Below, in pieces: positions 32,250 through 58,023 of a stretch of DNA of 64,000 nt; the first letter of the stretch is position 1, and every line of letters begins with the position of its first letter. Source of the DNA: a virus. A program made the position numbers and the translations under genes. The notes beneath the pieces are model-generated. The model searched no databases, had not been told where the DNA came from, and saw nothing but the letters and a program-made list of their open reading frames with translations. The DNA is taken from IMG/VR virus record IMGVR_UViG_3300027843_000001; one strand, written 5' to 3'.

Positions 32250-32328
32250 TAAGTTTTTGTTCGCAAATCCTTAAAATTTCGTGGTGTTTCATGCTGATAC
32301 TCAGATTGGTTTAGATATATAATAGTTA
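32248..32328 (+). mobile_element. Platform A: attI-like site plus integrase 5' stub (81 bp)
   Basis: Copy of 46042-46122; encodes MKHHEILRICEQKLK on the minus strand; ends at the GTTA junction of the first cassette. Confidence 0.85.
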
Positions 32329-32332
32329 TGCT

Positions 32333-32635
32333 TCATGCTAAAGAAGCCTCTGCGATAATTTGGTCTGATAATGAATAAACCATTCTTTTAGCAGTTAAAA
32401 AAAGACTTCCAAAATCATCGGGTTGCCTTTGTCTTAGTTTTGCAAAGAATTTCATATCGGTTTTTACTTTGTCCAAAAATTCAGTTATCCAACCAACAGA
32501 AGTATCTCCTTGTGGTGGTAAATTACCATCGTGCATTACCCTGTAAAGTTCCACGCTCATCCAACTGTCAGTTGATTCCCACACATTATGAGATTCATTT
32601 ATTGAGTATTTCTCAAATAATTCTTGTTTTGTCAT
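32333..32635 (-). CDS. Cassette A1 gene 2, hypothetical
   Basis: Probable start MTKQELFEKY directly after the upstream TAA. Confidence 0.7.
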   Translation of the reverse strand: MTKQELFEKYSINESHNVWESTDSWMSVELYRVMHDGNLPPQGDTSVGWITEFLDKVKTDMKFFAKLRQRQPDDFGSLFLTAKRMVYSLSDQIIAEASLA

Positions 32636-32636
32636 T

Positions 32637-32855
32637 TTAGTAAATGTTATTTTCAGGTGTTTCAAAATCTTGTCTTTGTTCCAATCTGTCAGCAGTATCA
32701 CGCAAATGTTTAATCATATCCTCTCTATTTGCCGTTGATATGTAATTTGCTACTGCTGGGTTTCCATAAGGAAAAACTAAAATAGTACAACCGAAATCTT
32801 TAGGTAAGAATTTAAGCACACTATCTGCCATTTTTTGCATTGCTATTTTACTCAT
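32637..32855 (-). CDS. Cassette A1 gene 1, hypothetical
   Basis: 72 aa with an AT-rich leader. Confidence 0.7.
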   Translation of the reverse strand: MSKIAMQKMADSVLKFLPKDFGCTILVFPYGNPAVANYISTANREDMIKHLRDTADRLEQRQDFETPENNIY

Positions 32856-32901
32856 TTATATTTAGTTTTAAATTTATAATTAATTGAAATAAAGCACGAA
32901 A

Positions 32902-33030
32902 GCATAACACAAGCTATAACCAATAAAGGTTTTAGTGGTTTATTTAGCGTTGTAGCTCGCATCCAGTTCAGTATCGTTTGATAGCGCATCGTACCGTAAT
33001 CCTTTACTGGTCATAGCTTCAACGTTATAA
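32902..33030 (+). mobile_element. attC-like site A1 (129 bp)
   Basis: GCATAAC-ACAAG-CTATAACCAATAAAGG ... CCTTTACTGGTCATAG-CTTCAAC-GTTATAA. Confidence 0.85.
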
Positions 33031-33101
33031 GCAAGGCGGGGAAGTGCTTCTATTTAAGGTCATCGGTAATTTGATGAAAAATAAAAGCCCCCGCCAGCAA
33101 A

Positions 33102-33551
33102 TTAAGGAATGACAATACAATCAATTCCAAGTTCAACAGCAATATCATATTCCTCTTTTACGCCTTCAATCATATTACCAATAAATATTGCTACACCGTT
33201 TGTTTTCTTAATGTTTTCTAACATTAGCCTTCTATCCCAAACCAAAGCATCGCCGTCTAATGTTGTGCCGTACCAGCAAACAATGTGTTCAGATACCTTT
33301 TCCAAAAAATCCCAAACAGTTAATGGAATATTTTTTTCAATCAAAGTCTTTTTTGGTAAAAAGCAATGATGCAAAACTGAACGAGGTTCATCGTATTCCA
33401 TTTGAACATCATCCATTTTGTAACTTCTTTCTGAAAAATCAAATTGCCCTTGGTATTTATCACTTTCAAGCCATTCGTTAAATTTTTTATCTACACTTTC
33501 AACCGTTTGGTTTTTAATTGTGAAATGCAGCGAAATATCATACTTTTTCAT
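33102..33551 (-). CDS. Cassette A2 gene, hypothetical
   Basis: Probable start MKKYDISL; cassette ends GTTATAAGC / GCTTATAAC are complementary. Confidence 0.7.
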   Translation of the reverse strand: MKKYDISLHFTIKNQTVESVDKKFNEWLESDKYQGQFDFSERSYKMDDVQMEYDEPRSVLHHCFLPKKTLIEKNIPLTVWDFLEKVSEHIVCWYGTTLDGDALVWDRRLMLENIKKTNGVAIFIGNMIEGVKEEYDIAVELGIDCIVIP

Positions 33552-33633
33552 ATCGTTATGGGTTTTACAACGCCCGCCCAAGGCTTTTATTTTTAGTGTT
33601 TCAATTCAAGTTTAGTAAGTAAAATCGCCCAGC

Positions 33634-33763
33634 TTATAACACGTGGTATAAAACAAAGCGGTTTTAGTGGTTCTCTAAGCGTTGTACCCCGTACCATTTT
33701 TCCCTGCATCGGGAAAATGGTTTCTCCGCTCTCCGCTTCGATTTCATACCACAGCCGTTAGCT
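33634..33763 (+). mobile_element. attC-like site A2 (130 bp)
   Basis: TTATAAC-ACGTG-GTATAAAACAAAGCGG ... CCGCTTCGATTTCATAC-CACAGCC-GTTAGCT. Confidence 0.85.
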
Positions 33764-33770
33764 GCCATTC

Positions 33771-33841
33771 CTCAACAAATAAAGGTATTAATACCCGAAT
33801 AAAAAATATGTTATGCAGCACATAAAATTGGTATATTTGCA
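33771..33841 (+). promoter_or_regulatory. Promoter block (ATGTT-N4-AGCA motif plus TATATTTG)
   Basis: Related to the blocks at 48851-48917 and 52491-52557; precedes the ORF at 33864. Confidence 0.65.
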
Positions 33842-33863
33842 TAAACATTAATCCATTAGAACT

Positions 33864-34724
33864 ATGGCAAATTTAGTTAAATTAACCGTTTTAGACGGTG
33901 GTCGTTTGACCAGAAGGACGGGCAGCATGTACTTTAACACTTCCCGTATTATTAGTTTCAAAACTGTAACAGCCGGGACTTTGCTGTTCTACAATGACAA
34001 TCGTAACGGGTGGCGGGAAAAGCCCGCTAAGATTTTAGTTAGTGACTCGTATGCCACCATAGCCGCTGCCGCTGCCATCTATGCCCCCGGCAACCGAATC
34101 TCGGTCAGCATCTTACAGAAAGGTAGCGACGTTTATGCTTCGGCTGTAACCGGTAGTCTTTGCGTGGATGACATCGTACTGGCCTATGCCAACCCCGGAA
34201 ACACTTCTACCCAGACTTATTTGCTCTTGCAGCATGGTATTTGGACTGCTGTAGAATACGTTATAAGTTCTTCCATTGCTGCTTTCTACAATGCTTCTAA
34301 AAAGATTACCGATGGCGTTAATACTTTAGTGGTTACTATTGGTAGCATTGGATCGACTACGGACGACTACAAATTCACTTCCGCCGCAAATACCACTGAG
34401 CAGGTTATTACCCTTACAGGGGCTATCCCCGCTTTTGCTCGTATTTTGGATTGGGCGGTTATCACAACAACAGCTTTCACCGGTATAACCGGCCTCACTA
34501 CCGCAGTCGGTACAACCTCGAGTGGAACGGAATTGGTTACAGATACCTCCAACCTTGCTGCGAATACCATTCTCAGCGGAGCTATAGCTGGCGCGCCGTA
34601 CCTTGCGGGTTCTGCTACTGCGCAAAATATTTTCATCAGTTGTAACCCGACCGGTAACTGGTCAACTATGACGGGAGGGCAGTTGAAGGTAGTCATAACT
34701 TATGTTGATAGGGCTAATGCCTGA
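33864..34724 (+). CDS. Putative virion protein
   Basis: 286 aa, T/A/G-rich beta-type C-terminal domain; followed by a terminator. Confidence 0.6.
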   Translation: MANLVKLTVLDGGRLTRRTGSMYFNTSRIISFKTVTAGTLLFYNDNRNGWREKPAKILVSDSYATIAAAAAIYAPGNRISVSILQKGSDVYASAVTGSLCVDDIVLAYANPGNTSTQTYLLLQHGIWTAVEYVISSSIAAFYNASKKITDGVNTLVVTIGSIGSTTDDYKFTSAANTTEQVITLTGAIPAFARILDWAVITTTAFTGITGLTTAVGTTSSGTELVTDTSNLAANTILSGAIAGAPYLAGSATAQNIFISCNPTGNWSTMTGGQLKVVITYVDRANA

Positions 34725-34736
34725 TAACGCTTAACA

Positions 34737-34762
34737 GAAGGAGGCCGCCAACCTCCTTCTTC
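34737..34762 (+). terminator. Intrinsic terminator
   Basis: gaaggagg-ccgccaa-cctccttc. Confidence 0.65.
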
Positions 34763-34784
34763 ATTTCATAAAACACACGAACTT

Positions 34785-35468
34785 ATGGAGCTGACTAAAA
34801 AAGATATTAACGTATCCAAGCTAAAGTATGACCCTTTTGACCCGAAGACAGTCAAAGCTTTGCAGGAGTACGAGGAGTTTAAGCAGGATTTTGGGGTGGA
34901 TAAGCAAAAGTTGTTTGCGTACATAATTTTGATGTACGACATGGGTAGCGACTTACGCCATAAAATAGAATGGCTTAATCCCCGTAAAAAGCAAGCCGCG
35001 GAGCTTGCTAATTTTCCTAAAGCCGACAGGGGCAGCACATTTGAACCTAATTATGAGAATATCATCATAGGGGGCAACAAAAAAGCCAACTCGGCCATAT
35101 CCCGGTACATACGTCTATTTGCAAATCCAAAATACACGTTACTCATATATTATCAAACCATTTTAGCATCGGAGTTTGATAACCTTAATGACCGTAGCGC
35201 AAAATCTAGTGACTACAATAAGATACTCGGCAATATAAAAGCTTGCGATGCCGGCATAGAGAACTGTACTAGCGCATTATTTGGTGGTGATGAAGAAATA
35301 TCAAGCATAAAACTAGCCCTTTACGAAGACGCTGAGAGGGAAAACCTCGGCCTAAGACCAGAAGACGTAGCCTTAGACCTGAGTATCCTCGACGACATAA
35401 TAGCCAACAGTAATCCTTACGGCAAAGGTTATAAGCCAAGAGAATTAAAGTTTAAAGGGGATAAGTAG
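34785..35468 (+). CDS. Hypothetical protein, possible small terminase
   Basis: Helical 227 aa protein immediately upstream of TerL. Confidence 0.5.
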   Translation: MELTKKDINVSKLKYDPFDPKTVKALQEYEEFKQDFGVDKQKLFAYIILMYDMGSDLRHKIEWLNPRKKQAAELANFPKADRGSTFEPNYENIIIGGNKKANSAISRYIRLFANPKYTLLIYYQTILASEFDNLNDRSAKSSDYNKILGNIKACDAGIENCTSALFGGDEEISSIKLALYEDAERENLGLRPEDVALDLSILDDIIANSNPYGKGYKPRELKFKGDK

Positions 35469-35469
35469 T

Positions 35470-37821: not shown

Positions 37822-37894
37822 AACCAATAGTGTTGAAATGAAATGTAATTCTGAGAACAAAGTAAACTAATTTATGGTGAATAAAAAATATGTT

Positions 37895-38839
37895 TTACGG
37901 CATAGATTTTCGAGCCTTCATTAGACCTTCCACTCTTTTACGATAATCTTCGGGCTGCTTAGATAAGTCCACTTGCTCTACGTATTTAGATTTTATAGAA
38001 GCAGGCAACTTGTTAAACCCTTTCCATTTTTCGTATTCCGCTTCGTCTATGTCCTTAGTTGAACCGTCGTGATACTTTATTCTAAACCTCCTACCGGGTT
38101 TGTTCATACGGGTTTCCCCCTTATCATTAACAGAATAATAACTGTTGTCGTATGAGGGTTCTACACTCTCCACTTGTCGATAATAGCTTTCTGGACTTTT
38201 TTCCGATTCGGTACTCGTAAATTTTTGGGGCTTGTAATCGATAGCGGTGCCAGATATTATAATTGGATTACCCTGCGCGTCAATTTTATATTTTTCATAT
38301 TTACCCGTGGATTTGTTCTTTATGTAGGGGCCTTCCGCAAATTTTATCACGTCACTTTTATCATAATTGCCTTTCCCAAAAACGCCCGGCTGAGTACTAC
38401 TGTACTTACTCTCTAACTGCTTATATGTCGGATCATCAGACGCTATTTTGCGAAGCGATGGGGTCTCGGGGTCTAAGTAATAGCCTAATTTTTTGCCGAA
38501 GGTCTGGTTATACCGATCAATATATGATCGAGACAGGTTGGTAACTTTGGGCGCTTCATCCTCAGACGAGGGTCGAAACAGCACATGAGCATATCTATTT
38601 ATACTTTCGGGATCTCTGTATAAATTAGGATTAGATGCACCACCCGCTTCATTTATTTCCTTCGCCGCCTCATAGGACATAGATCCCTCTGGACGTGTAA
38701 TTAAAGATGCCTTATAAGCTGCGTCCCCCTTTAGCTTTGGGATCGGGTTCCGGTTAAAATAATCAGCAAATTGCGGATTCTTGTTTACAAAAGCCGCTAC
38801 CTCAGAATCGGAATACTCGTTTTTTTTATCTTCTGGCAT
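37895..38839 (-). CDS. Hypothetical protein
   Basis: 314 aa ORF following the portal gene. Confidence 0.7.
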   Translation of the reverse strand: MPEDKKNEYSDSEVAAFVNKNPQFADYFNRNPIPKLKGDAAYKASLITRPEGSMSYEAAKEINEAGGASNPNLYRDPESINRYAHVLFRPSSEDEAPKVTNLSRSYIDRYNQTFGKKLGYYLDPETPSLRKIASDDPTYKQLESKYSSTQPGVFGKGNYDKSDVIKFAEGPYIKNKSTGKYEKYKIDAQGNPIIISGTAIDYKPQKFTSTESEKSPESYYRQVESVEPSYDNSYYSVNDKGETRMNKPGRRFRIKYHDGSTKDIDEAEYEKWKGFNKLPASIKSKYVEQVDLSKQPEDYRKRVEGLMKARKSMP

Positions 38840-45072: not shown

Positions 45073-45105
45073 GAACCCTGGGTCTGGCAACCCGGGGTTC
45101 TTTAT
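45073..45105. terminator. Terminator hairpin
   Basis: gaaccctggg ... cccggggttc followed by a T-rich tail. Confidence 0.7.
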
Positions 45106-45285
45106 TTTATGACAGATAGCAAAGTCCTGTCAGATAACTTCGCATGCTTACTGCAAACATTTATGATGTAGCTACAGTGCCTATCCGATACGGTCTTAGT
45201 TATAAGATTGGTGGCAGATAAACAATATAAGCAAGCGCCAGTGTCTAGTCTTTCTACTTTCAAAATAATATTTTTATGAGTGACG

Positions 45286-46086
45286 TCATAAAGGTAAAGC
45301 AATTTTTTGAAGCAACGCCGTTGATACATGCGTGTAAATCTCCGTTGTTTTACCGCTAGAATGCCCAGCCATTTTTTGAATAATCCGCAAATCCGTTCCG
45401 CTCTCTAAAAGGCTAGTAAAGCATGAATGCCTAAGTATATGGAAATGACTGTGACTATCAATATACTTTTTAAAAATTTTCTGACAACTACCTACAGAAT
45501 ATTTTGGTTCAAACTGGCCATTAAAAAGATATTCCTTAGGCTTAAACTGCCGATAATATTCACGGAGCAATAGCAGAATGTTTTCCGATAATGGCACGAT
45601 CCTATCTTTGCGGCCTTTACCATTCTTAATAGTTATCAGCATACGTTTGCTGTCAATATCTGTGAGTTTAAGATTAACCACTTCACTTACACGCAGTCCG
45701 ACCGAAAACGCAAGCGACAGAATTGCCCTATGCTTTATGTTTTCAATTTTGTTTATCTGGTTTATAATAAAGTTTTTATCAATAACTTGCGGAAGATGCC
45801 GCTCACTACGCGGACGCTCAAACGAAACCTTATCATACTTCTTATCCAGTACCTTTTCATAAAGGAACTTGATGGCATTAATGACTTGGTTTTGTTGCGA
45901 AATGGACGTGAACTTGAAAGCATCCAAATAAGTTTGAAAGTCCGCAGCAACAATATGCTGCGGGTATTTATCCACCTTTTCGAGAAATTTAATAATATAG
46001 TGCGAGTACATGTCTCGCGTCCTCGGCGAGTAGTTTAAGTATTTAAACTTTTGTTCGCAAATCCTTAAAATTTCGTGGTGTTTCAT
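45286..46086 (-). CDS. Tyrosine recombinase, integron-integrase-like
   Basis: Catalytic R (GLRVSE), K (GKGRKDR), HxxR (HILRHS), H (AGHSS) and Y (IYTHV); N-terminal SAM-like domain (NYSPRT...YSHYI, QNQVINAIKFLYE). Confidence 0.95.
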   Translation of the reverse strand: MKHHEILRICEQKFKYLNYSPRTRDMYSHYIIKFLEKVDKYPQHIVAADFQTYLDAFKFTSISQQNQVINAIKFLYEKVLDKKYDKVSFERPRSERHLPQVIDKNFIINQINKIENIKHRAILSLAFSVGLRVSEVVNLKLTDIDSKRMLITIKNGKGRKDRIVPLSENILLLLREYYRQFKPKEYLFNGQFEPKYSVGSCQKIFKKYIDSHSHFHILRHSCFTSLLESGTDLRIIQKMAGHSSGKTTEIYTHVSTALLQKIALPL

Positions 46087-46122
46087 GTTGATAATCAGAT
46101 GGGTTCAGATATATAATAGTTA
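46042..46122 (+). mobile_element. Platform B: attI-like site overlapping the integrase 5' end
   Basis: ...cagatatataataGTTAGCAAC; the first cassette junction is 33 nt from the integrase ATG. Confidence 0.85.
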
Positions 46123-46410
46123 GCAACAATTGTCTAAGACGGTTTTCCAGTCGATAGATTTTCCGCAATATGGGCAGAAATTAAATCTATGAATGTATCC
46201 CTTTCTACCATCGACAATTTGTTTTGCTGTTAATGGCTCGCCTTTTAATAATCCATATTTTTTTAGCTCTGGCTGCAATTTTACAACATCTTCAACCTGT
46301 CTTTTTATGTCGGAAAGTTTTATATCTTCTCCGCTCAAAAATCCGATGAAACAATCACAACTGTTGCTAACACTATGTATAAGCGATTTGAGTTTTACTG
46401 CGCTTGTCAT
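46120..46410 (-). CDS. Cassette B1 gene, small protein with CPYCG zinc-finger-like motif
   Basis: ATG lies inside the attC B1 loop; the TAA is the complement of the junction TTA. Confidence 0.65.
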   Translation of the reverse strand: MTSAVKLKSLIHSVSNSCDCFIGFLSGEDIKLSDIKRQVEDVVKLQPELKKYGLLKGEPLTAKQIVDGRKGYIHRFNFCPYCGKSIDWKTVLDNCC

Positions 46411-46492
46411 ATCCTGTGATTTTTATAAAATTATTACTGTGATATAGTTTGCGGCTTCTAATCCCAAACCGCTCATACATTTTTCGTTAGCC
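46365..46492 (+). mobile_element. attC-like site B1 (128 bp)
   Basis: TGCTAAC-ACTAT-GTATAAGCGATTTG ... CAAACCGCTCATAC-ATTTTTC-GTTAGCC. Confidence 0.85.
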
Positions 46493-46497
46493 ACAAT

Positions 46498-47121
46498 TTA
46501 GTCAATACCCAAAAAGAAGGCTCCGAGTTCACCCGAAGATATCTCTTCCTCTTTTTTAGGTTCTGATTGATTTTCTTGTGGTTGTTTAGGTTCTTCCTTT
46601 GGTGTGTTTTGAATAGCTTCAAATAGTTTCTTCATTTCACCAAGGCACATTGTAAAACCTTTTTTGTAATACCTAAACGCACGGCTCATTGAGCTTGCAG
46701 GATAAGTAATTTTATTTATCATTAATTGCCTTTTTGCAAGGTCAATAAACGTGGTTTCTCCGAGGTATATTTTTTCATGGTCAACAGCAAACATTGAAAC
46801 AGTAAAATCAAACGCCTCAATCGTTGTTTGCGGGTCTGCAAAAAACTTCTTTACAAGGTCGTAAGTACATTCTTTATATTTCATCTTGCAGCCGTTATTG
46901 CTTTCCCATTTTATTTCGCAGTCTTTTGCTTTAAAATATGTACGTGCCTTTTCGTACTCTATTTCATTTGGGAAAAACATATCGTAATCAGTTTTTACAG
47001 GCACACCCATAAAGTAATCACGTAAAGCACCGCCAGCAAGCCAACATTTTATATCAGCTTCTTTCATTTCGTTTAAAATAATCTTGCCATATCTTTGAAC
47101 GGCATTTTCAAATTGAATCAT
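46498..47121 (-). CDS. Cassette B2 gene: nucleotidyltransferase (CCA-adding / poly(A) polymerase head-like)
   Basis: LAGGALRD...DYDMFF and FDFTVSMFA motifs; probable start MIQFEN. Confidence 0.75.
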   Translation of the reverse strand: MIQFENAVQRYGKIILNEMKEADIKCWLAGGALRDYFMGVPVKTDYDMFFPNEIEYEKARTYFKAKDCEIKWESNNGCKMKYKECTYDLVKKFFADPQTTIEAFDFTVSMFAVDHEKIYLGETTFIDLAKRQLMINKITYPASSMSRAFRYYKKGFTMCLGEMKKLFEAIQNTPKEEPKQPQENQSEPKKEEEISSGELGAFFLGID

Positions 47122-47157
47122 ATCGTTTGTTATTAATAGTTTAAAAATAAAAACTGT

Positions 47158-47289
47158 GGCTAACACGGGCTCATACGCAACTGGGGTTTAAGTAGTTACG
47201 TCAAATGTACATCTTTTTTTTTACTTTGGTGTATGTTGAAAATTTAGTAGCTCCGATTCCCCAGCTGCGCATAGCCCCATCCGTTAGTG
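47158..47289 (+). mobile_element. attC-like site B2 (132 bp)
   Basis: GGCTAAC-ACGGG-CTCATACGCAACTGGGG ... CCCCAGCTGCGCATAG-CCCCATCC-GTTAGTG; unpaired C in the left arm. Confidence 0.88.
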
Positions 47290-47338
47290 GCAAGCGGAAG
47301 AACTGCTCCGATTGAACGTCCGTGCATTGGTAATTAAG

Positions 47339-47665
47339 TTACTTGTTTAAAACATTTGAAAGGAATCCGTGAAGAATTGGGTCGTTGTCAAATATTTCCA
47401 AGTCTTTGCCCGTAAACGAACTTCTTATTGTTGCTTCAATCGCAATCTTATTGTCATTATCAGCATTATTCCATTCATGGTGGTATTTAGCTAATTGCTG
47501 GCGTTTACCATCGTAGTAGCTTTGTGTTTGCTCAAATACCTCACGCCTTGCGTTTTCTTTACGTACACCCCAAAAGCGTGTACCAAATATTTCAAACTCG
47601 TTAGCTGCAAAAATCAAAGCAAATAAGCCAATAATTGAAGCAATTGTTATTAGTGCTATTTTCAC
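47339..47665 (-). CDS. Cassette B3 gene 2, membrane-anchored hypothetical
   Basis: N-terminal TM helix; 108 aa. Confidence 0.7.
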   Translation of the reverse strand: MKIALITIASIIGLFALIFAANEFEIFGTRFWGVRKENARREVFEQTQSYYDGKRQQLAKYHHEWNNADNDNKIAIEATIRSSFTGKDLEIFDNDPILHGFLSNVLNK

Positions 47666-47667
47666 GG

Positions 47668-48180
47668 CTATTGTAATTTAAAAGGTGAAACCAATACTTT
47701 AGGCTCAATATATACGGGTCTGGGCTGGTTATCATTTGGGTCAATCATCATTAACCAAGTTCCCTCAGCACTCGAAGGCATAAACAACCCGTTTGGGTCT
47801 GCTTGCGGCCTAACTGCACATCCTCGTTCTGAAATGCCAGGAGTTTCTAAAGTCATTGGGTTTGTGTATTGGGTTGCATAAGGTATACCATATCCGATAC
47901 ATTTACCTAAAAATACGGGCTCTCCAGTCATTTCAGGTACTATGTAAGCATAACAAATTAAGTTTTCTTGGTCACGTAGTTCTAAAATCATTTTCATAAG
48001 CTTGCGTTCCTGAAAGTTCTTAATTGCTGGCATTCCTACCTGTGCATTAGCCTCTTTCATTAAAACTTCTTGTTTTGCGGCTAATACATCATTAGTTGTT
48101 GGTTGTTGGTCACAACTCGAATTACTCATAAGTAGCATCATTATAGCTACTAAACTAAAAATTGAAATAGCTTTTTTCAT
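47668..48180 (-). CDS. Cassette B3 gene 1, lipoprotein-like hypothetical
   Basis: Signal peptide ending NSSC; CIGYGIPYATQYTNP and QADPNGLF motifs. Confidence 0.75.
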   Translation of the reverse strand: MKKAISIFSLVAIMMLLMSNSSCDQQPTTNDVLAAKQEVLMKEANAQVGMPAIKNFQERKLMKMILELRDQENLICYAYIVPEMTGEPVFLGKCIGYGIPYATQYTNPMTLETPGISERGCAVRPQADPNGLFMPSSAEGTWLMMIDPNDNQPRPVYIEPKVLVSPFKLQ

Positions 48181-48233
48181 TTTGTTTGTTTTAAATTATT
48201 AATATATAGTAAATTATAAATAAAATGCACTGG

Positions 48234-48324
48234 TACTAACACCGTATATAAAACATAGCCAGATAGTTTACTGCTTAATTGCAAGGCTTGTGCATGGCTA
48301 CGTTTCATATAAGAACCGTTGTGC
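48234..48324 (+). mobile_element. attC-like site B3 (91 bp)
   Basis: TACTAAC-ACCGT-ATATAAAACATAGCC ... GGCTACGTTTCATAT-AAGAACC-GTTGTGC. Confidence 0.85.
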
Positions 48325-48328
48325 GCAA

Positions 48329-48541
48329 TTAACCCAACTCCCAATATTCGATAGCTCTTTCTTTTCCTGTTGTATTCAAAAATTCAGTTTCTCCAAAATG
48401 AGAAATAACTTCTTCGATAGAGAAATGCTCGAGAATTTCCGATATACTTGCGCTATCAGCTTCTATTCTTACTTCACTTTTTCCATTTGGCTCAATTGTA
48501 CAATTTGAAGCTGAAAAACTTAAATCTACTTCTTCATTCAT
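48329..48541 (-). CDS. Cassette B4 gene, acidic hypothetical
   Basis: 70 aa; cassette ends GTTGTGCG / CGCACAAC are complementary. Confidence 0.7.
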   Translation of the reverse strand: MNEEVDLSFSASNCTIEPNGKSEVRIEADSASISEILEHFSIEEVISHFGETEFLNTTGKERAIEYWELG

Positions 48542-48587
48542 AATATTATATTTAATTTATTAACAATGATTTACAAACAATAACTAC

Positions 48588-48690
48588 GCACAACAAGCGG
48601 TCATAAAACAAAGCGGGTTAAGTGCAATTTACAAGTTCATTAACTCGCTCGTAGTTCGGTATCGGCGGATAGTTTCACAGCCCGTTCACC
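48588..48690 (+). mobile_element. Truncated attC-like site B4 (left arm only)
   Basis: GCACAAC-AAGCG-GTCATAAAACAAAGCGGG; complementarity stops after CCCG at about 48684. Confidence 0.65.
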
Positions 48691-48850: not shown

Positions 48851-48917
48851 CAACAAATTAACTTATTAATCCTCATATAAAAAATATGTTAGAAAGCATA
48901 AAAATTATACCTTTGCA
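48851..48917 (+). promoter_or_regulatory. 67-bp promoter block, repeated at 52491-52557
   Basis: caacaaattaact...atataaaaaatatgttagaaagcataaaaattaTACCTTTGca. Confidence 0.75.
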
Positions 48918-48938
48918 ATACACAATATTATAGGCGCT

Positions 48939-51006: not shown

Positions 51007-51017
51007 CGTAGAAAGTA

Positions 51018-51098
51018 TTTAAGTTTTTGTTCGCAAATCTTTAAAATTTCGTAGCGTTTCGTGCTGATACTTAGATTGGTTTAGATATGTAATAGTTA
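51018..51098 (+). mobile_element. Platform C: attI-like site plus integrase stub (start codon ATG changed to ACG)
   Basis: 81-bp copy, 6 mismatches to platform A. Confidence 0.85.
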
Positions 51099-51121
51099 TA
51101 TGCAAGGCTAAGACCGTGCAT

Positions 51122-51952
51122 TTAATCAACATTTGTGGGTTCATCCGTAAAAGAAAAAAGCCCACGCTCTTTTGCTTTTTCAAAGCAATTAGGGTTTATG
51201 TCGCAACCTATAAAGTTTCGTTTCAAATCTTTGCATACTTCGGCAGTTGTAAAACTTCCAGAATAAAAGTCTGCAACTAAATCTCCTTCATTGCTACTTG
51301 CTTTAATAATTCGCTCAATTAATGCTTTTGGTTTTTGGGTATCATATCCAAGTCTTTCAGAGTTAGTCGGCCCCAAATTATTCAATTCCCAAACATCATC
51401 AATAGGTGTTGAATCTTGTATTTTATAAACAACATCACCATTTTCGTCCCTTTTCATTACCTTTTTACCATCTTTCACATCTACTTTATTTTTCTTTCTT
51501 GGTGTCTCTAATGGCAATCTTAATTCATTAAATATTATTTTGTCAGTTTTGCCATAAAATATAAGTATATCGTGGTTTTTAGCAAACGCCTTTTGCTTTA
51601 TACTCCATTTATTGTAACTCCAAATAACCTCATTCACAAAATTATCGTATCCAAATATGTCATCCATTATACACCTAATCCAATGGTTTATTTTGGTATC
51701 CATTTGTAAATAAATACTTCCTGTTGGTTTCAATATTCGGTGCATTTCTTTTATTCGTGGTATATAGTGGCTTTCAATTTCACTTCTTATGGGTTTCAAA
51801 TCTTGGTAGTCTTTAAACTTCCTGCCAGTTCCATAAAGTATATCACAATAAATTAAGTCTATCGTGTTATCTTTAATTTCTGCCATCAATTCTAAATTGT
51901 CGCAAATTCTAAGGTCTAAAAAACCATCCCCATTTTTTTCTTTTACTATCAT
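51122..51952 (-). CDS. Cassette C1 gene: DNA methyltransferase (N6-A/N4-C, beta-type order)
   Basis: IYCDILYGTG, LKPTGSIY, NEVIW, YDTQKPKALIERII and ADFYSGSFTT motifs. Confidence 0.9.
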   Translation of the reverse strand: MIVKEKNGDGFLDLRICDNLELMAEIKDNTIDLIYCDILYGTGRKFKDYQDLKPIRSEIESHYIPRIKEMHRILKPTGSIYLQMDTKINHWIRCIMDDIFGYDNFVNEVIWSYNKWSIKQKAFAKNHDILIFYGKTDKIIFNELRLPLETPRKKNKVDVKDGKKVMKRDENGDVVYKIQDSTPIDDVWELNNLGPTNSERLGYDTQKPKALIERIIKASSNEGDLVADFYSGSFTTAEVCKDLKRNFIGCDINPNCFEKAKERGLFSFTDEPTNVD

Positions 51953-51993: not shown

Positions 51994-52093
51994 ATATAAC
52001 ACGTTGTATATGTCAGTTTTGCCAATTGGCTTTCGTGCTTTGAATAGGAATGTGTGCGTGGCAAAACCGAACACATACAACCATCCGTTAGCG
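51994..52093 (+). mobile_element. attC-like site C1 (100 bp)
   Basis: ATATAAC-ACGTT-GTATATGTCAGTTTTGCC ... GGCAAAACCGAACACATAC-AACCATCC-GTTAGCG. Confidence 0.85.
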
Positions 52094-52402
52094 GGCATTG
52101 TAATGAACACAGCCGAACCAACTTTTAGTTGAATATTCAAATCCTAATCCATCATGAACACATATAGGATATGATTGCATTCCAGTTTTTTCAGTATCAG
52201 GGTATTCTTCTTTTGGATATGTTTTCCCCGTTATTTCAGTTCCATTTTCAATCCATTTTCCAGAAAGTATTAAGCATTCGCCCATATCTTTTGAATATTC
52301 GGATTCTTCTTTTTTATTCCAATTTTTACATGATAAACAACGACCCGCTAACACACGGTTAGCGCAATTGCCGTTTTTGTGGTTATTCGTAGTTTCTACC
52401 AT
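52088..52402 (-). CDS. Cassette C2 gene, Cys-containing hypothetical
   Basis: ATG inside the attC C2 loop; CLSCKNW and FGCVHY motifs; stop codon in the junction. Confidence 0.7.
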   Translation of the reverse strand: MVETTNNHKNGNCANRVLAGRCLSCKNWNKKEESEYSKDMGECLILSGKWIENGTEITGKTYPKEEYPDTEKTGMQSYPICVHDGLGFEYSTKSWFGCVHYNAR

Positions 52403-52476
52403 TTTATTAAGTTTTTAGTAAATTGATAATTAAGTTCTTTTTAGTCGGCAACTTCGCTAACCGTCAGCCGTTATCG
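52346..52476 (+). mobile_element. attC-like site C2 (131 bp)
   Basis: CGCTAAC-ACACG-GTTAGCGCAATTGCCG ... CGGCAACTTCGCTAAC-CGTCAGCC-GTTATCG. Confidence 0.85.
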
Positions 52477-52490: not shown

Positions 52491-52557
52491 CAACAAATTA
52501 ACTCGTTAATACACATATAAAAAATATGTTAGAAAGCATAAAAATTATACCTTTGCA
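52491..52557 (+). promoter_or_regulatory. 67-bp promoter block, repeat of 48851-48917
   Basis: Nearly identical copy; TACCTTTG at 52548-52555. Confidence 0.75.
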
Positions 52558-52559
52558 GT

Positions 52560-53240
52560 ATGAACTTAGACTCTATACTAAATACGGTCAGAACCATTAT
52601 TAACCAAGTAAGCCCTTCCTTACAGCTTACGGAGGATATGTTTTCGGACGTGTGCCAATTGGTCAACCTGGATTACTTCAAGTTGTGGTGCGGACTTCCG
52701 GAAGACTGGGCACCGGGGCAGCCGGTTTCCCGAAGGGGCTGGCAGGTGTCGAGCCAAAACACGGAAGCACTCAAGACGTTCTTAGTTGACGAGGCTACGT
52801 ACTCTGTCACCATAGCCGGTAAGTTGACATACCCCGCCAACTTTGTCCATATTGATCTTATAAAGTTCAACTACCAAGGCACTGAAATATCGGTCACAGA
52901 AAAGGATCATCAGGAAATAGGGAACTTACTTAAAAGCCCTATTCTTGCACCTACTTCGCAATACCCCATTTTCACCTATTACGGGGCTTACCTTCAATTT
53001 TATCCTAAGGATTTAGCCAATGTAACGATGAGCTACTTCCGGCTTCCTACGACCCCGAAATATGTCATAAAGGAGGAGAACGGGGTCAACGTATACGACC
53101 CTGATAATTCAGTTCAATTCGAATGGCCGGAGGCTTACCACAATGACTTGGTTAAAATGATTCTCTCCTATTTGGGCATAAGCTCAAAGGATGTCAATGT
53201 GGCTAATTACGCAGAAAGTGTTAAGGCTAAAGGGGCTTAA
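52560..53240 (+). CDS. Tail ring / connector protein, paralog of 48939-49688
   Basis: Shared N- and C-terminal motifs, and YFRLPTTP vs YLKLPSIP. Confidence 0.65.
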   Translation: MNLDSILNTVRTIINQVSPSLQLTEDMFSDVCQLVNLDYFKLWCGLPEDWAPGQPVSRRGWQVSSQNTEALKTFLVDEATYSVTIAGKLTYPANFVHIDLIKFNYQGTEISVTEKDHQEIGNLLKSPILAPTSQYPIFTYYGAYLQFYPKDLANVTMSYFRLPTTPKYVIKEENGVNVYDPDNSVQFEWPEAYHNDLVKMILSYLGISSKDVNVANYAESVKAKGA

Positions 53241-53250: not shown

Positions 53251-53269
53251 GAAAAATTTTATTGTATCC

Positions 53270-53512
53270 TCATCGATTGTACCAATCTTGCGAAGACTTT
53301 ATAATGTTTTTAAGCTCTGCTAGCTCTTTGGCAGAGGAACTTAACAGCGATGGCTCCCTCCACGTATAGGTTTTAACACCATCTTCTACTAAAATCCTTA
53401 CAAATCGGCGATACGGATATTTTGGACGTACGCTACATAACTGCTTAACTCTGTAGCTGTAAGCGAAGAAGGGATCTATCGCCTTTATTTCTTCTAGAAG
53501 TTCATCTTTCAT
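53270..53512 (-). CDS. Hypothetical protein
   Basis: Probable start MKDELLEE. Confidence 0.55.
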   Translation of the reverse strand: MKDELLEEIKAIDPFFAYSYRVKQLCSVRPKYPYRRFVRILVEDGVKTYTWREPSLLSSSAKELAELKNIIKSSQDWYNR

Positions 53513-53522
53513 AATAATCGGT

Positions 53523-53714
53523 TTATAGCGCCATAGGTGGATCAGTAACTTTGTATATGCAATACCCGTCGGCATCCGCCCTTTTTGCCGTTGGGTTCAT
53601 TATGTACTGGCGCCAGAGTTTATTGATTGTGTCCTCATCCGTTTGTACCCTTACGCCGTTGGCGTCTTCGTACCATTGATCCCGGCCTTTTTCACCAAAA
53701 ATATGTACTTCCAT
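53523..53714 (-). CDS. Hypothetical protein
   Basis: 63 aa; starts 5 nt from the platform D stub. Confidence 0.6.
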   Translation of the reverse strand: MEVHIFGEKGRDQWYEDANGVRVQTDEDTINKLWRQYIMNPTAKRADADGYCIYKVTDPPMAL

Positions 53715-53718
53715 AGGT

Positions 53719-53799
53719 TTTAAGTTTTTGTTCGCAAATCCTTAAAATTTCGTAGTGTTTCATGCTGATACTCAGATCGGTTTAGATATATAATAGTTA
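53719..53799 (+). mobile_element. Platform D: attI-like site plus integrase stub
   Basis: 81 bp, 2 mismatches to platform A. Confidence 0.88.
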
Positions 53800-53806
53800 T
53801 ATGAAA

Positions 53807-53992
53807 TTATTCAATCCACCGCCTAACAACTTCAAACTCATTGTTATTAGTCCAGCATTTCAAATAATCTCTTTCTAACAATATTTCAACTAATGAACTT
53901 ATTTCAAAGTCATCTAAATCAACTGTAATTTCAAACTGCTTATATTTTAAGCTTCCTGTATTTACTTTTATTTCATAATGTATGTTAATCAT
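53807..53992 (-). CDS. Cassette D1 gene, hypothetical
   Basis: Probable start MINIHY; cassette ends GTTATATG / CATATAAC. Confidence 0.6.
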   Translation of the reverse strand: MINIHYEIKVNTGSLKYKQFEITVDLDDFEISSLVEILLERDYLKCWTNNNEFEVVRRWIE

Positions 53993-54011
53993 ATATTTAA
54001 ATATAAACCTC

Positions 54012-54142
54012 ATATAACATCGGCTCATATTTCATAAGGGTTTAAGTGCGATGTGTAACTTTTCCCCTCGTAGGTAATTATTTGTAATTTGACAGGCTTG
54101 TGCTTCGATTACCCTTACGAAACATAGCCGTGTTCGTTAGCC
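54012..54142 (+). mobile_element. attC-like site D1 (131 bp)
   Basis: ATATAAC-ATCGG-CTCATATTTCATAAGGG ... CCCTTACGAAACATAG-CCGTGTTC-GTTAGCC. Confidence 0.88.
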
Positions 54143-54850
54143 ACCATATACAAACAGCCTTTCGACAGTTTTGTAAGTTAATGTGGTATTCATTGAATTT
54201 GTTACTTCTTTCGACCAAACACAAATAAAGTCATTTGGTGCTTGATATTCGGAAATAAATACTTTATGTCCTTGATTTGTCATATCTCTACACCATCCCC
54301 AAAATTTATTATGGTTAAAGTTTTTTGAAGTTGCATATTGTTTTGTGTTTTGGTACGGAATGTCGCAATAAATTATAGAATTTTCAAATAGTTCAATGTC
54401 AGAATAGTTTCCACTTATAAATATTGCACCTTTTAAAAATTCAACTTGTTTTAATGTATTTCTAATTTGTTCATCAACATAATCCCTTGTTGCTGTTTTA
54501 CCTGAATATCCACCATCGAAAAACCTACCATTAAAAGAAGCCATCCACCCAATCCACCCAATCATAAAATCGTCAAATTCTATGTTAGTCCCATTATTAT
54601 ATTCTGATCTTGCTTTTGAATATAACTCTTTCGATATTTCCATTGGTTTATCTCTATTTTCTTGCAATCCTTTCCACATTGCAATCAAATATTTGTTTTT
54701 ATCAATAGCAATCCTATTTCCAGAAACTTTGTCAAATGTTCCTAAACCACCACAAAACGGCTCAATATAGTATTGATTATCTTTTCTGTCTTTTAATATA
54801 ATCGGAAGTATTTCTTTTGCTATCCGATTTTTTGAACCCATGTATTTCAT
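54137..54850 (-). CDS. Cassette D2 gene: Dam-like (D12 class) DNA adenine methyltransferase
   Basis: YMGSKNRIAK, YIEPFCGG, IYCDIPY and VFISEY motifs; stop codon in the junction. Confidence 0.9.
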   Translation of the reverse strand: MKYMGSKNRIAKEILPIILKDRKDNQYYIEPFCGGLGTFDKVSGNRIAIDKNKYLIAMWKGLQENRDKPMEISKELYSKARSEYNNGTNIEFDDFMIGWIGWMASFNGRFFDGGYSGKTATRDYVDEQIRNTLKQVEFLKGAIFISGNYSDIELFENSIIYCDIPYQNTKQYATSKNFNHNKFWGWCRDMTNQGHKVFISEYQAPNDFICVWSKEVTNSMNTTLTYKTVERLFVYGG

Positions 54851-54883
54851 TTATCTATATTTTAATTTATTACTAAATACGGT

Positions 54884-55014
54884 GGCTAACAATGTGTAGC
54901 ACCAATAAGGGTTTTACTGCAAATTTTAAGCGTTGTAGTCCGCTTGTTGGTCGGTATAGTTTGATAGGTTTGAACTCCGCAATCCCTTACTTGTGCTACA
55001 CTCGTCCGTTATAA
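54884..55014 (+). mobile_element. attC-like site D2 (131 bp)
   Basis: GGCTAAC-AATGT-GTAGCACCAATAAGGG ... CCCTTACTTGTGCTAC-ACTCGTCC-GTTATAA. Confidence 0.88.
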
Positions 55015-55060
55015 CCAATGCAAGAACGCTCCTTGGATAGTTCCTGCATTAGATTAAAGT

Positions 55061-55540
55061 TTACTCTTTCAAAAGAAGTTTAGCAACATCTTCTTTTAAC
55101 ATTCCGTTTTCGTGCAATTTTGCTACAATTTGAGAAGCAAAAAGCATATCGTAACGGTCTTTAAGCTCTTTTGATATTTTATCAGAAGTTTTTGTCGTTT
55201 GAGAGTTTAAAAAATCTCTCAATTTGTTTTCGCTTAATTGCGTTCTTTCCAATTCTTCTGTTATCCATTCGGAAATAGAAATCATGTCATTGGAATTGTA
55301 ACGCTTTTTAACTTTGGCGTTTACAACAAGCTCATTTAAGGCACTTATTATAAATTGCTCCTTTTGCTTTTCAATTTCCGCAATCACGGCACTATTAAAT
55401 TCAGCACCTATTTTTGCTTTCCAATCGGCTAAAATTTGTTGCCTTACATTATAGGCAATTGCACTTTTAATTTGCTCCGAAAAAGAGCTTTCGTCTTCTG
55501 AATAAAAATCAGATAAATCTACTGTTACATTAATTTTCAT
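55061..55540 (-). CDS. Cassette D3 gene, helical hypothetical
   Basis: 159 aa; cassette ends GTTATAACCA / TGGTTATAAC. Confidence 0.75.
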   Translation of the reverse strand: MKINVTVDLSDFYSEDESSFSEQIKSAIAYNVRQQILADWKAKIGAEFNSAVIAEIEKQKEQFIISALNELVVNAKVKKRYNSNDMISISEWITEELERTQLSENKLRDFLNSQTTKTSDKISKELKDRYDMLFASQIVAKLHENGMLKEDVAKLLLKE

Positions 55541-55586
55541 TTCTTTAAGTATTTAGTTATTAATAATTTAAAATAAAATGCACTGG

Positions 55587-55717
55587 TTATAACACACGCT
55601 CATACGTAACGTTGGTTTTAGTGCCTATTTTATGCGGTCTGCTTCTAATTTAGTTCGGTAACGTGGGATAAGTAACCGCTTCGAAATCCCACGCTACGCA
55701 TAGCGGAAACGTTAAAT
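55587..55717 (+). mobile_element. attC-like site D3 (131 bp)
   Basis: TTATAAC-ACACG-CTCATACGTAACGTTGG ... CCACGCTACGCATAG-CGGAAAC-GTTAAAT. Confidence 0.85.
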
Positions 55718-55869
55718 ACACAATCACGCATTACATCTCTACCCGGAGCAATAACTAATAATGTTTTCATAATTTAAAATTTACTGTATTTTGATAAATA
55801 TGTTTTTCGATTTCCGATACTTTTCACAGAAACCAACAAATCGGGTTTTATAATATTCTGCTGTTTAGT

Positions 55870-56097
55870 TTAATTCTCCATATACCTTTTCTGATGCGCA
55901 ATTAAGTTGAGCATACCCGCAGAATTTTTTTCTGCTTCCGAAAATAATTCTGTTAGTGTTTTGTTATACACCTTATTTTGCTTTTCAAAATCCCTACTGA
56001 CTTTTCTGTTTGCAAAGAATATAGCCACTGCTGCTAATATGCCAACGGCATCTATGACAAGTGCTGTATAAGCTAATATGTCTATTACGTTTTTCAT
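55870..56097 (-). CDS. Small membrane protein
   Basis: N-terminal TM segment. Confidence 0.6.
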   Translation of the reverse strand: MKNVIDILAYTALVIDAVGILAAVAIFFANRKVSRDFEKQNKVYNKTLTELFSEAEKNSAGMLNLIAHQKRYMEN

Positions 56098-56306
56098 GCT
56101 TTCTCAAAATAAATTCTTAAGTCATAATGAATCCCGACATAATCCCAATTAAAGAAGCAAGTCTCTTTTGGTATAGGGTACTCTTGGAATCCGTAAACAG
56201 CCAAATCGCGTTTCAAATGGTCAAAGTTAAGGTAATCCTTAGATAACTCCCGGCCATTGCCGTATCGCTTTGTATCCAGTTTGGCATAATAAAAATTTTT
56301 CTCCAT
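56094..56306 (-). CDS. Hypothetical protein
   Basis: 70 aa; AAAGCCATG start context. Confidence 0.6.
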   Translation of the reverse strand: MEKNFYYAKLDTKRYGNGRELSKDYLNFDHLKRDLAVYGFQEYPIPKETCFFNWDYVGIHYDLRIYFEKA

Positions 56307-56333
56307 GGCTTTATTTATAATTTGTTTGCGTTA

Positions 56334-56690
56334 TTACAGCATTTGACCTTCGTGAGCGTTACCTAGTATAACATAACGTTCTGATTCAAATGAGTCGTTT
56401 AAGAATTGTTGGCCCCTAGATATTTCCGGATGCGGGTTACCAATAATTTTTATCCGGTTAGCAATTAATACGTAGCCCCTCCACTATATGAGGTATATAA
56501 CTGTCCCAGTCACAAGGTATTCTTTGTAAGGGTCTCTGCTACGCCCATCATACCCATCATAGTAATGATTATTCATTATTAGGGTCTCTGTAATAGCTGT
56601 GTAATCCCCCTCCCGCATAAGTTGGCCGTTCTTATCCTCGAAGGATGTTAAAAACAGGTGCCTACTGCTATCTAATTCTTTTTTCTCCAT
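56334..56690 (-). pseudogene. YopX-like gene interrupted by an in-frame TAG (56484-56486)
   Basis: FEDKNGQLMREGD before the TAG; the frame stays open for 49 codons after it and ends VILGNAHEGQML (YopX C-terminal IGNIHE-like). Confidence 0.7.
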
Positions 56691-56698
56691 GACTTTAT

Positions 56699-56938
56699 TT
56701 ATCTGTATTTTATTTTCAACATTAAAACATAATTCTCTACGCTCTTAAGCAAATCTGATTCGCTGCCCGGTACAAACTGCTTACCGTGCAAAGAACTCAA
56801 TGCTATTCTGTAGTACCTGAGGGCTTTTATTTCATCCCTCAGGCCGGTACCATTATCCGACAATGCTTTTTTATCTAATTGGGTTATGAACTTTGTCAGA
56901 TCATTTATGAATTTTTCTTTGTAGGTCATAGGTTCCAA
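56699..56938 (-). CDS. Hypothetical protein
   Basis: 79 aa ORF in the early operon. Confidence 0.6.
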   Translation of the reverse strand: MEPMTYKEKFINDLTKFITQLDKKALSDNGTGLRDEIKALRYYRIALSSLHGKQFVPGSESDLLKSVENYVLMLKIKYR

Positions 56939-57129
56939 CTTTTTATTTCTTTGACCATCCTTACGGAATCTTTACGGAATACCATAATAAAGGAATCCTT
57001 TTTCAACTTGTTGCATGACCCCTCAAGATAGCCATTTGTATAGATATACATTACGTTCGTTAATGCTAAATTCGATATTCGCGTACAGGATACGAGCGAT
57101 AAGGCAGCCATTGCTATAATCGTTTTCAT
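56926..57129 (-). CDS. Small lipoprotein-like protein
   Basis: Probable start MKTIIAMAALSLVSC. Confidence 0.55.
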   Translation of the reverse strand: MKTIIAMAALSLVSCTRISNLALTNVMYIYTNGYLEGSCNKLKKDSFIMVFRKDSVRMVKEIKSWNL

Positions 57130-57130
57130 A

Positions 57131-57325
57131 CTACCTACAATTAAATTCATCGTTTATGGGCATTGCGAAGCAAGTGGAAAACCTGCCCTCCCAGAACCGG
57201 CCATTGTGCGAAAACTTAGGCGGCTTTTGGGGCTTATCGGTAGAGGCAACATAGTGATGACCCTTTTCATCAATGGCCATTAGTGTCTGGCCAGATTTTG
57301 ATAACTCAAAAGTAAGTTTTTCCAT
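57131..57325 (-). CDS. Hypothetical protein
   Basis: 64 aa, directly after the platform E stub. Confidence 0.6.
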   Translation of the reverse strand: MEKLTFELSKSGQTLMAIDEKGHHYVASTDKPQKPPKFSHNGRFWEGRFSTCFAMPINDEFNCR

Positions 57326-57348
57326 GACGTTTTTATTTTAGTTTGTTG

Positions 57349-57410
57349 ATCCTTAAATTTTCGTGGTGTTTCATGCTGATACGCAGATTGGTTTAGATAT
57401 ATAATAGTTA
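57349..57410 (+). mobile_element. Platform E: attI-like site plus shortened integrase stub
   Basis: atccttaaattttcgtggtgtttcatgctgatacgcagattggtttagatatataataGTTA. Confidence 0.82.
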
Positions 57411-57417
57411 TGTGGCA

Positions 57418-57852
57418 TTAAAAGATCCACGCTTTGATAATTTCGTAAAGATTTAATTTTAAGTGATACGAATTAATTATTACGAACACGCCAAATACTA
57501 ATCCTACAACCGAATTTAACCAGTGTAATACCGTATATGCTGGGCTAAATTTAAACAGCTTACTTATTGGAGCTATTACAATAAAATTAAAAGCAATAAT
57601 TGAAACAAAGGCAACCCAATTAAATGTCAATAGTCCTGCAAACATCCATAAAGCAAATATTAAACTTGGCAGTCCTCGACTAATTAAAATGTCTTTATAA
57701 TCTTGTGGGTATTCATCCCACTTTTTGCCTTTATTTTGTTTCGTGAGTTCTTTGAATTTCTTTGATTTTTCAGTGTATTCAACTGGGCTTATTAGCCAAA
57801 GAACTTCATGTATTATAAAGCAAATTCCGATAAAATAAAAAATGTGTTTCAT
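57418..57852 (-). CDS. Cassette E1 gene, multi-pass membrane protein
   Basis: Probable start MKHIFYF; about four hydrophobic segments; cassette ends GTTATGTGGC / GCCACATAAC. Confidence 0.75.
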   Translation of the reverse strand: MKHIFYFIGICFIIHEVLWLISPVEYTEKSKKFKELTKQNKGKKWDEYPQDYKDILISRGLPSLIFALWMFAGLLTFNWVAFVSIIAFNFIVIAPISKLFKFSPAYTVLHWLNSVVGLVFGVFVIINSYHLKLNLYEIIKAWIF

Positions 57853-57893
57853 TGTTATAATTTTTAAGTTATTAATATTCAATAATTAACGCC

Positions 57894-58023
57894 ACATAAC
57901 ACGCGGTCATACGTAACTGGGACTTAATCAGTATGCGAGGCATGTAGCTCGTATTGTCGTTTGGTGTAAGTTGATAGTTCGTAGCTTCGATTACCTCAGC
58001 TACGCATACCGCAATCGTTAGCC
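57894..58023 (+). mobile_element. attC-like site E1 (130 bp)
   Basis: ACATAAC-ACGCG-GTCATACGTAACTGGG ... CTCAGCTACGCATAC-CGCAATC-GTTAGCC. Confidence 0.85.

Follow-up and report, generated by a model that had tools for sequence, protein, structure and literature searches.

The window analysed here is a stretch of 64,000 nucleotides (nt) from the IMG/VR virus record IMGVR_UViG_3300027843_000001, a phage genome of 71,116 bp that is complete according to CheckV and of which the window is the minus strand. It contains five arrays (A to E) of an integron-like system, in which cassettes with attC-type recombination sites lie to the right of an attI-type site, and array B is abutted by the open reading frame (ORF) of a tyrosine recombinase (Table 1). 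Each array comprises one to four units to the right of attI, and a unit has one or two ORFs and, to their right, an imperfect hairpin. The cassette ORFs, 14 in total, are without exception on the minus strand, antisense to attC. Every Pfam or PHROG match falls on a minus-strand ORF (N6_N4 and D12 methyltransferases, a nucleotidyltransferase-like protein and three PHROGs), and eight alternative plus-strand ORFs in the cassettes gave no match to either collection. The proposal of the initial annotation that all cassette genes read on the minus strand toward attI is thus borne out. Its description of the arrays, with attI at the left end and attC 5' of the gene, also holds, except that the right-hand end is not a complete hairpin in every array: the terminal site of array B (B4, ~48590-48690) is degenerate.

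The attC sites were located with a covariance model built from eight long, well-aligning sites. In the window this model identifies 12 attC-type sites, all on the plus strand and all within the five arrays, with scores of 29-129 bits on the forward strand and at most 13 bits on the reverse strand. For the eight long sites, RNAalifold predicts 17 base pairs, 13 of them with compensatory changes. The sites are imperfect hairpins with TAAC and GTTA cores (R''-L''/L'-R') and a variable loop, and in all 12 the unpaired spacer is asymmetric, being longer on the R' side. A single bulged base was observed in arm-only folds of B2, D1, D3 and E1 and in no other site, in exact agreement with the unpaired C first noticed in the plus-strand left arm of these four; on the gene-sense strand it is a G on the 3' arm. 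It lies five pairs into the inner stem, a position that we take to be that of the extra C of L'' on the classical attC top strand, as in attCaadA7 and the Vibrio cholerae repeat (VCR) structure. The plus strand of the window corresponds to the classical attC top strand, an assignment supported by the break points described below; as far as sequence allows, the contrary case, in which the opposite strand would be the recombinogenic one, does not appear to apply.

The recombinase is short, and among NCBIfam models it is matched best by XerA/integron integrase (170 bits, below the cut-off) and by TIGR02249, which matches in two stretches with 139 bits against a cut-off of 265. When aligned with VchIntIA (2A3V), residues 178-214 of the recombinase span VchIntIA residues 181-265. 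About 48 residues are missing, and by this alignment the additional segment specific to IntI (the I2 helix region), which lies between the catalytic patches, is absent. The protein family is very large, with at least 7,989 matches, of which the best 120 are at least 66% identical, and many of the relatives are encoded on phage contigs of 100-360 kb. Related viral contigs, 47 in number, encode integrases that are 53-70% identical to that of the window, and the adjacency of integrase and array is found in related viral loci as well.

To see how far the arrangement extends beyond the window, the viral loci were compared with the nearest integrases in species-representative bacterial genomes. In the 47 viral loci the covariance model gives 205 attC matches, none of which shares a strand with the integrase, and nearly every one is located upstream of that gene. 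Of the 124 intervals between neighbouring attC sites, 95 have their longest ORF on the integrase strand, and where an ORF fills at least half of the interval, it is antisense to attC in 48 cases versus 4. In Polaribacter phage P12002S both methyltransferase genes are arranged in this way, with the same type of hairpin 5' of them. The flanking genes in the relatives are also co-directional with the integrase, in 40 of 42 loci downstream of it and in 17 of 20 upstream of the array, and the annotation of the cultured Polaribacter phages Freya shows an unbroken same-strand row that takes in the cassettes, the integrase and the gene of an HNH endonuclease. The expectation that the integrase is the last gene of the platform B transcript holds neither strictly nor in general: a 75-amino-acid (aa) ORF (45102-45329, minus strand) overlaps its 3' end, and most relatives have additional co-directional genes behind the integrase.

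The nearest bacterial integrases are 33-46% identical and belong to Polaribacter, Tenacibaculum, Nonlabens and other Flavobacteriaceae. Comparison with chromosomal Bacteroidota arrays of the same attC family, the check suggested in the initial annotation, revealed the opposite orientation. With the same model, 105 attC matches were obtained in the chromosomal loci, all but two of them on the integrase strand and mostly downstream of the integrase; unlike in the phages, the ORFs are sense to attC in 24 clear cases versus 1. Both strand exceptions, and the single ORF exception, are in L054, a 30-kb contig of a metagenome-assembled genome whose layout is of the viral type and which clusters with the viral clade. 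An attI-like site (TAAC-NN-GTT arrangement) follows the integrase stop codon in the chromosomal loci. Several chromosomal sites inspected by hand have the same spacer asymmetry as the attC sites of the window, and the strand calls are therefore not an artefact of the model. In a maximum-likelihood tree of 91 integrases, 39 viral-type and 50 chromosomal rows are split at a branch with 100/100 support; among the scorable rows, every viral-type integrase has the opposite-strand layout and every chromosomal one the same-strand layout. Common to both layouts is that the integrase is at the attI end and that the ORFs are co-directional with it, and only the handedness with respect to attC differs. 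On this comparison, the reversed layout is common to the phage recombinase clade and not peculiar to the phage of the window. The anatomy, the polarity, the break points described below and the clade-wide distribution are what the sequence data show. The literature searches brought up no account of reversed cassettes or of this clade of recombinases.

The borders of the mobile units were examined in contigs that share sequence. Blocks common to otherwise unrelated phage contigs, 86-99% identical, start or end at TAA|C (gene strand), and contigs L031 and L051 share a complete 311-bp cassette that is bounded by TAA|C on both sides and has its attC at the 5' end. In related loci with enough upstream sequence, an attI core, TAAC|TATnATATAT, is located 40-55 nt upstream of the integrase ATG, and beyond its TAAC the sequence diverges. 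A conserved tail of ~30 nt (AATCGAAGCAC ... TTGC ... ATAA|C, gene strand) is found ahead of the R' core at attC junctions and likewise at attI junctions, as a crossover at AA|C predicts. Metagenomes were compared as assembled contigs only, which break at repeats, and the informative one is X3, a contig of high depth from a biogas fermenter metagenome. Over 234 nt (51095-51328) it differs from cassette C1 at a single position, and the similarity begins precisely at G51095; on the left-hand side of the junction its context is different and resembles another attC. The phages Freya_1 to Freya_10, whose integrase is 39.5% identical and lies at a varying distance from the start of the record, provide a further case. 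A block of 3.2 kb with seven genes is present in Freya_10 (L127 890-4100) and absent in Freya_5 (L129 452-464). Its borders are the R' end of an attC and a point 47 nt ahead of the integrase ATG; it is thus integrase-proximal, and the Freya_5 junction is the hybrid expected for an AA|C crossover. Taken together, the ends of the shared blocks, the X3 contig, the attI core and the Freya polymorphism show by comparison that units enter or leave at the integrase-proximal site, that the crossover is at the R' core and that each unit carries its attC 5' of its genes. Addition of cassettes at the right-hand end, which had been named as the outcome contrary to the proposed polarity, is, as far as sequence allows, not what is found, insertion and excision being integrase-proximal and the break points being at R' and not at R''.

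Table 1. Coordinates of the arrays and associated features (positions in the window)
Feature	Position	Strand	Description
attI copy A	32248-32329	+	Junction G32325|TTAT; preceded by perfect 36-nt palindrome, 32214-32249
attI copy B	46041-46123	+	Junction G46119|TTAG; attached to intact integrase
attI copy C	51017-51099	+	Junction G51095|TTAT; X3 contig match begins exactly at 51095
attI copy D	53719-53800	+	Junction G53796|TTAT
attI copy E	57336-57411	+	Junction G57407|TTAT; left side most diverged
Tyrosine recombinase	45286-46086	-	Short (266 aa), Xer/IntI-like; Pfam Phage_integrase 2.3e-35 and Phage_int_SAM_4
Cassette A1	32326-33024	-	ORFs 32333-32701, 32637-32855; attC 32904-33024 (+)
Cassette A2	33025-33757	-	ORF 33102-33581; attC 33636-33757
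Cassette B1	46120-46486	-	ORF 46120-46410; attC 46368-46486
Cassette B2	46487-47283	-	Nucleotidyltransferase-like ORF 46498-47166; attC 47160-47283, bulged base
Cassette B3	47284-48318	-	ORFs 47339-47665, 47668-48180 (phrog_24725); short attC 48237-48318
Cassette B4	48319-48690	-	ORF 48329-48541; degenerate terminal attC from 48590
Cassette C1	51096-52087	-	N6_N4 DNA methyltransferase 51122-51952, Pfam 3.2e-47; attC 51997-52087
Cassette C2	52088-52470	-	ORF 52088-52402; attC 52349-52470
Cassette D1	53797-54136	-	ORF 53807-54028; attC 54014-54136, bulged base
Cassette D2	54137-55008	-	D12-class adenine methyltransferase 54137-54850, Pfam 5.6e-14; attC 54886-55008
Cassette D3	55009-55711	-	ORF 55061-55540; attC 55589-55711, bulged base
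Cassette E1	57408-58017	-	ORF 57418-57882; attC 57896-58017, bulged base
Stub ORFs in attI A, C, D, E	32244-32290, 51014-51060, 53715-53761, 57326-57365		
Sigma-70-like attI core	46088-46117, 53765-53794, 57376-57405	+	
Conserved tail	e.g. 33031-33060, 47290-47325		Right of R' cores
Conserved tail in relatives			L016, L017, L020, L024, L031, L045, L049, L051; just upstream of attI
Operon-restart block	48851-48920	+	At distal end of array B; further copies 33773-33842, 52491-52560

The whole genome contains exactly five attI copies of ~82 nt, which are 82-98% identical and whose conservation ends abruptly at GTTAT, or at GTTAG in copy B. The start codon and the first 15 codons of the integrase are inside copy B. 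In the four integrase-free copies a stub ORF (MKHH...) remains, made up of the integrase start codon and 13-22 codons, and in copies D and E the next real gene begins right behind the stub. On the simplest reading, the functional attI would be ~80 bp long and overlap the 5' end of the integrase gene. Arrays A, C, D and E have no integrase gene next to them and would be called clusters of attC sites lacking integron integrases (CALINs); each of them, however, opens with an attI copy and the integrase 5' stub, the enzyme being encoded elsewhere in the genome. The exact attI pattern had zero matches in viral contigs. The attI core also resembles a sigma-70 consensus promoter (TTGATA, 18 nt, TATAAT; 11 of 12 positions) directed into the cassettes, antisense to their genes. 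This resemblance is probably a by-product of an AT-rich recombinase-binding core, and use as a promoter in a Bacteroidota host is unlikely. The perfect palindrome at 32214-32249 and a strong terminator-like hairpin at 45073-45100 are both located where convergent transcription meets, the latter closing a plus-strand operon beside the end of the minus-strand island B.

The TAA stop codon of the ORFs in B1, C2 and D2 is the TTA of the G|TTA crossover core (46120-46122, 52088-52090 and 54137-54139), and these ORFs therefore end at the very edge of the cassette. The R''/L'' arm of B1 (46368-46410) and C2 (52349-52402) overlaps the first ~14-17 codons of the ORF, and hairpin and translation start therefore share sequence. 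In the cassettes the start codons lie 15-45 nt past R'', and two ORFs start inside the hairpin. The first part of the conserved tail is repeated in the attC loop beside L'; by analogy, the tail repeats may serve as accessory binding sites, much like the direct repeats of attI1. The C1 methyltransferase gene is 84% identical at the nucleotide level, over part of its length, to a methyltransferase gene of phage P12002S, and the D2 methyltransferase has 68% aa identity to the product of an ORF upstream of the integrase in L026.

Phage DNA was found near-fully present in one wetland metagenome, and 84% of it in a second. Megablast against GenBank phages gave the methyltransferase as the sole match and no close whole-phage relative, and Rfam at gathering thresholds gave nothing in the window. 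Domain matches to the crAss muzzle and the SU10 adaptor are below the Pfam thresholds; these two matches are the sole basis for a crAss-like label, which was not relied on. A repeat search identified a 70-nt block with a -7 box of Bacteroidota type (TAccTTTG) that restarts plus-strand operons, and because of the type of this box the host is probably a member of the Bacteroidota. A 24-nt motif beginning GAATAAAAAATATGTT... is found within the block at 33797-33820, 48875-48898 and 52515-52538, and a fourth copy of the motif lies between convergent genes at 37879-37902, remote from the arrays.

The locus is probably a phage-borne integron-like platform with mirror cassettes that are expressed by read-through from the distal end. 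In this reading attI would recombine with the R' box of attC, the crossover being at the G|TTA core, which is AA|C on the strand of the genes. Entry of new cassettes would therefore be beside attI and, in gene sense, a cassette would consist of attC followed by one or two ORFs. The genes lie on the strand that matches the classical attC bottom strand, a mirror of classical integrons and of the chromosomal Flavobacteriaceae arrays. In the phage clade attI precedes the integrase, and most relatives have the entire unit embedded in a long block of genes of one direction, where only ORFs antisense to the attC top strand would read the same way as their neighbours. Cassettes would then be expressed by read-through from upstream and not from a Pc promoter at attI, and the mirror form may reflect selection for co-orientation with the neighbouring genes. 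The phages would in this manner keep a mirror-cassette pool of their own, which here holds two orphan DNA methyltransferases.

The identity of the recombined strand and the mode of cassette transcription are the parts of this reading that we infer from sequence. The initial annotation had offered two sources of expression, the distal end of the array or signals in each cassette's own attC. The co-directional flanks of the relatives favour the former. Against the latter speaks the -7 motif TAnnTTTG, which shows no enrichment in the ~75 nt that follow attC (9.6%, compared with 8% for controls; 135 non-identical sites). A scan for the sigma-70 consensus was not above shuffled sequence (54 versus 48.7), and this consensus is unfit for Bacteroidota hosts. 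Given the co-directional flanks, the lack of -7 enrichment and the start codons close to or inside the hairpin, promoterless cassettes that are read through from the distal end would be the favoured arrangement.

Some observations weigh against this reading. The recombinase is without the segment by which IntI reads extrahelical bases, and the bulge is present in just 4 of the 12 sites. The ORF strands of the relatives were called by comparing the longest ORFs and not by gene prediction with homology. Arrays D and E are within a long minus-strand block; arrays A, B and C are between plus-strand operons, and read-through from neighbouring genes therefore cannot explain their expression. No minus-strand promoter for arrays A, B and C was identified in the window. 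It is this antiparallel setting, in which some minus-strand promoter is required, that lends weight to the idea of self-expressed cassettes, each with a promoter in its attC or in the AT-rich spacer behind it, possibly for a phage-specific polymerase or sigma factor, in which case orientation would be irrelevant. A conserved stretch (repeat family D16) that precedes the R'' box in several cassettes would fit such a promoter. The idea is nevertheless unlikely in view of the unenriched TAnnTTTG motif, the short distance from R'' to the start codons, two of which are within the hairpin, and the strong co-orientation of the flanks in relatives, for which self-sufficient cassettes would have no need.

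The hairpins would be transcribed as 5' leaders of all cassette genes, two of them overlap start codons, and the attI block carries the integrase start or, in the other four copies, a short stub ORF. All this could be accommodated if the hairpins were mainly RNA or transcription elements (terminators, processing sites or structures at translation starts), the 82-nt block a promoter or leader, and the likeness to integrons superficial. Such an account is very improbable, because sequence homology between unrelated phages ends precisely at the AA|C core, an attC and attI delimit the block that distinguishes the Freya isolates, the sites adjoin a dedicated recombinase at the related viral and chromosomal loci that were examined, and Qi et al. 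(2023; PMC9892861) showed recombination by IntI1 of one attC predicted in a related Polaribacter phage. The hairpins may still have a regulatory role alongside recombination. Hardly any credence is given to a reversed polarity, in which conventional gene-then-attC cassettes on the minus strand would be inserted at the right-hand end and the 82-nt block would be a conserved terminal site. The core boxes alone (TAAC ... GTTA) are indeed nearly symmetric, and L029 and L048 share attC sequences with different flanks on both sides. Shared blocks that contain ORFs, however, end at the R' box and never at R'', the conserved tail upstream of R' also precedes the attI junction, the Freya polymorphism is at the integrase-proximal end, and on the gene-sense strand the spacer asymmetry and the bulge match the classical bottom strand.

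The mirror-cassette reading can be carried further. Since site-specific recombination cannot invert an ORF with respect to its own attC, the phage and chromosomal cassette pools would be largely separate. A more far-reaching form, which is possible though doubtful, is a separate mirror-handed cassette economy of the phages, without cross-use in expressed form, in which the coding strand would be recombinogenic, mobility would be coupled to transcription and the hairpin would be the 5' leader of the mRNA. The coding, non-template strand would here be the presumed recombinogenic strand, and transcription, which would lay bare the hairpins as single-stranded DNA, could therefore favour extrusion of the hairpin.

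Classical integrons capture promoterless genes, which read away from attI under Pc. Analogous to the classical integrons of class 1 and of Vibrio chromosomes, the phage system has a tyrosine recombinase beside attI, an integrase gene that reads away from the array, imperfect hairpins with RYYYAAC and GTTRRRY-like cores, a crossover at G|TT and, in four of its 12 sites, one bulged L'' base. In contrast to them, its recombinase is without the IntI-specific insertion, every cassette ORF is on the bottom-strand side of attC and reads toward attI, five attI copies are present in one genome, carried by a phage, and a Pc-type logic would not be possible. The chromosomal Flavobacteriaceae arrays share the attC family (the same covariance model), a short integrase and the co-directionality of integrase and ORFs, and differ in having the integrase upstream of the array, attI after the integrase stop codon and ORFs sense to attC. 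They fit the inverted-integrase layout of the Treponema denticola type, in which the integrase is upstream of, and co-directional with, sense cassettes. The window is unlike this type, its integrase being downstream of the cassettes and its ORFs antisense to attC. In structure and profile comparisons the recombinase is matched best by XerA and XerC-like proteins, which are of the same size. The Xer/dif systems (archaeal XerA, bacterial XerC-XerD), however, use a single duplex dif site for dimer resolution or for the integration of integrative mobile elements exploiting Xer (IMEX), whereas the system in the window has many folded sites, attI and mobile cassettes. The system is thus integron-like and displays most of the anatomical criteria of an integron, but it is not a member of the IntI family proper, because the IntI insertion and sense cassettes under Pc are lacking.

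Integrase-less CALINs have been described in phages, including one with two methyltransferase cassettes in Polaribacter phage P12002L, a relative of P12002S, whose sites were reported to be in 'divergent directions' (Qi et al., 2023; PMC9892861). In these virulent flavobacterial phages, too, genes of orphan DNA methyltransferases lie between attC-type sites. A recombinase that the phage encodes together with its own attI, and the systematic reversal of cassettes, are absent from that description (PMC9892861), and both are present in the system of the window.

The C1 methyltransferase cassette recurs nearly unchanged in an unrelated habitat, a biogas fermenter. A widespread phage clade has sites of the integron kind, the opposite gene polarity and a recombinase without the hallmark segment of IntI. 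Standard integron detection, which requires that segment, would presumably miss such systems. Related integrases are encoded by cultured phages of Polaribacter and Cellulophaga, and the Freya isolates examined have the mirror layout; the questions raised by this layout can therefore be tested at the bench, with the block polymorphism of Freya_5 and Freya_10 as a ready experimental system. The contrast between the phage and the chromosomal Flavobacteriaceae arrays is a natural experiment on what fixes cassette orientation. For the phages themselves, the system provides modular swapping of accessory genes, such as orphan methyltransferases.

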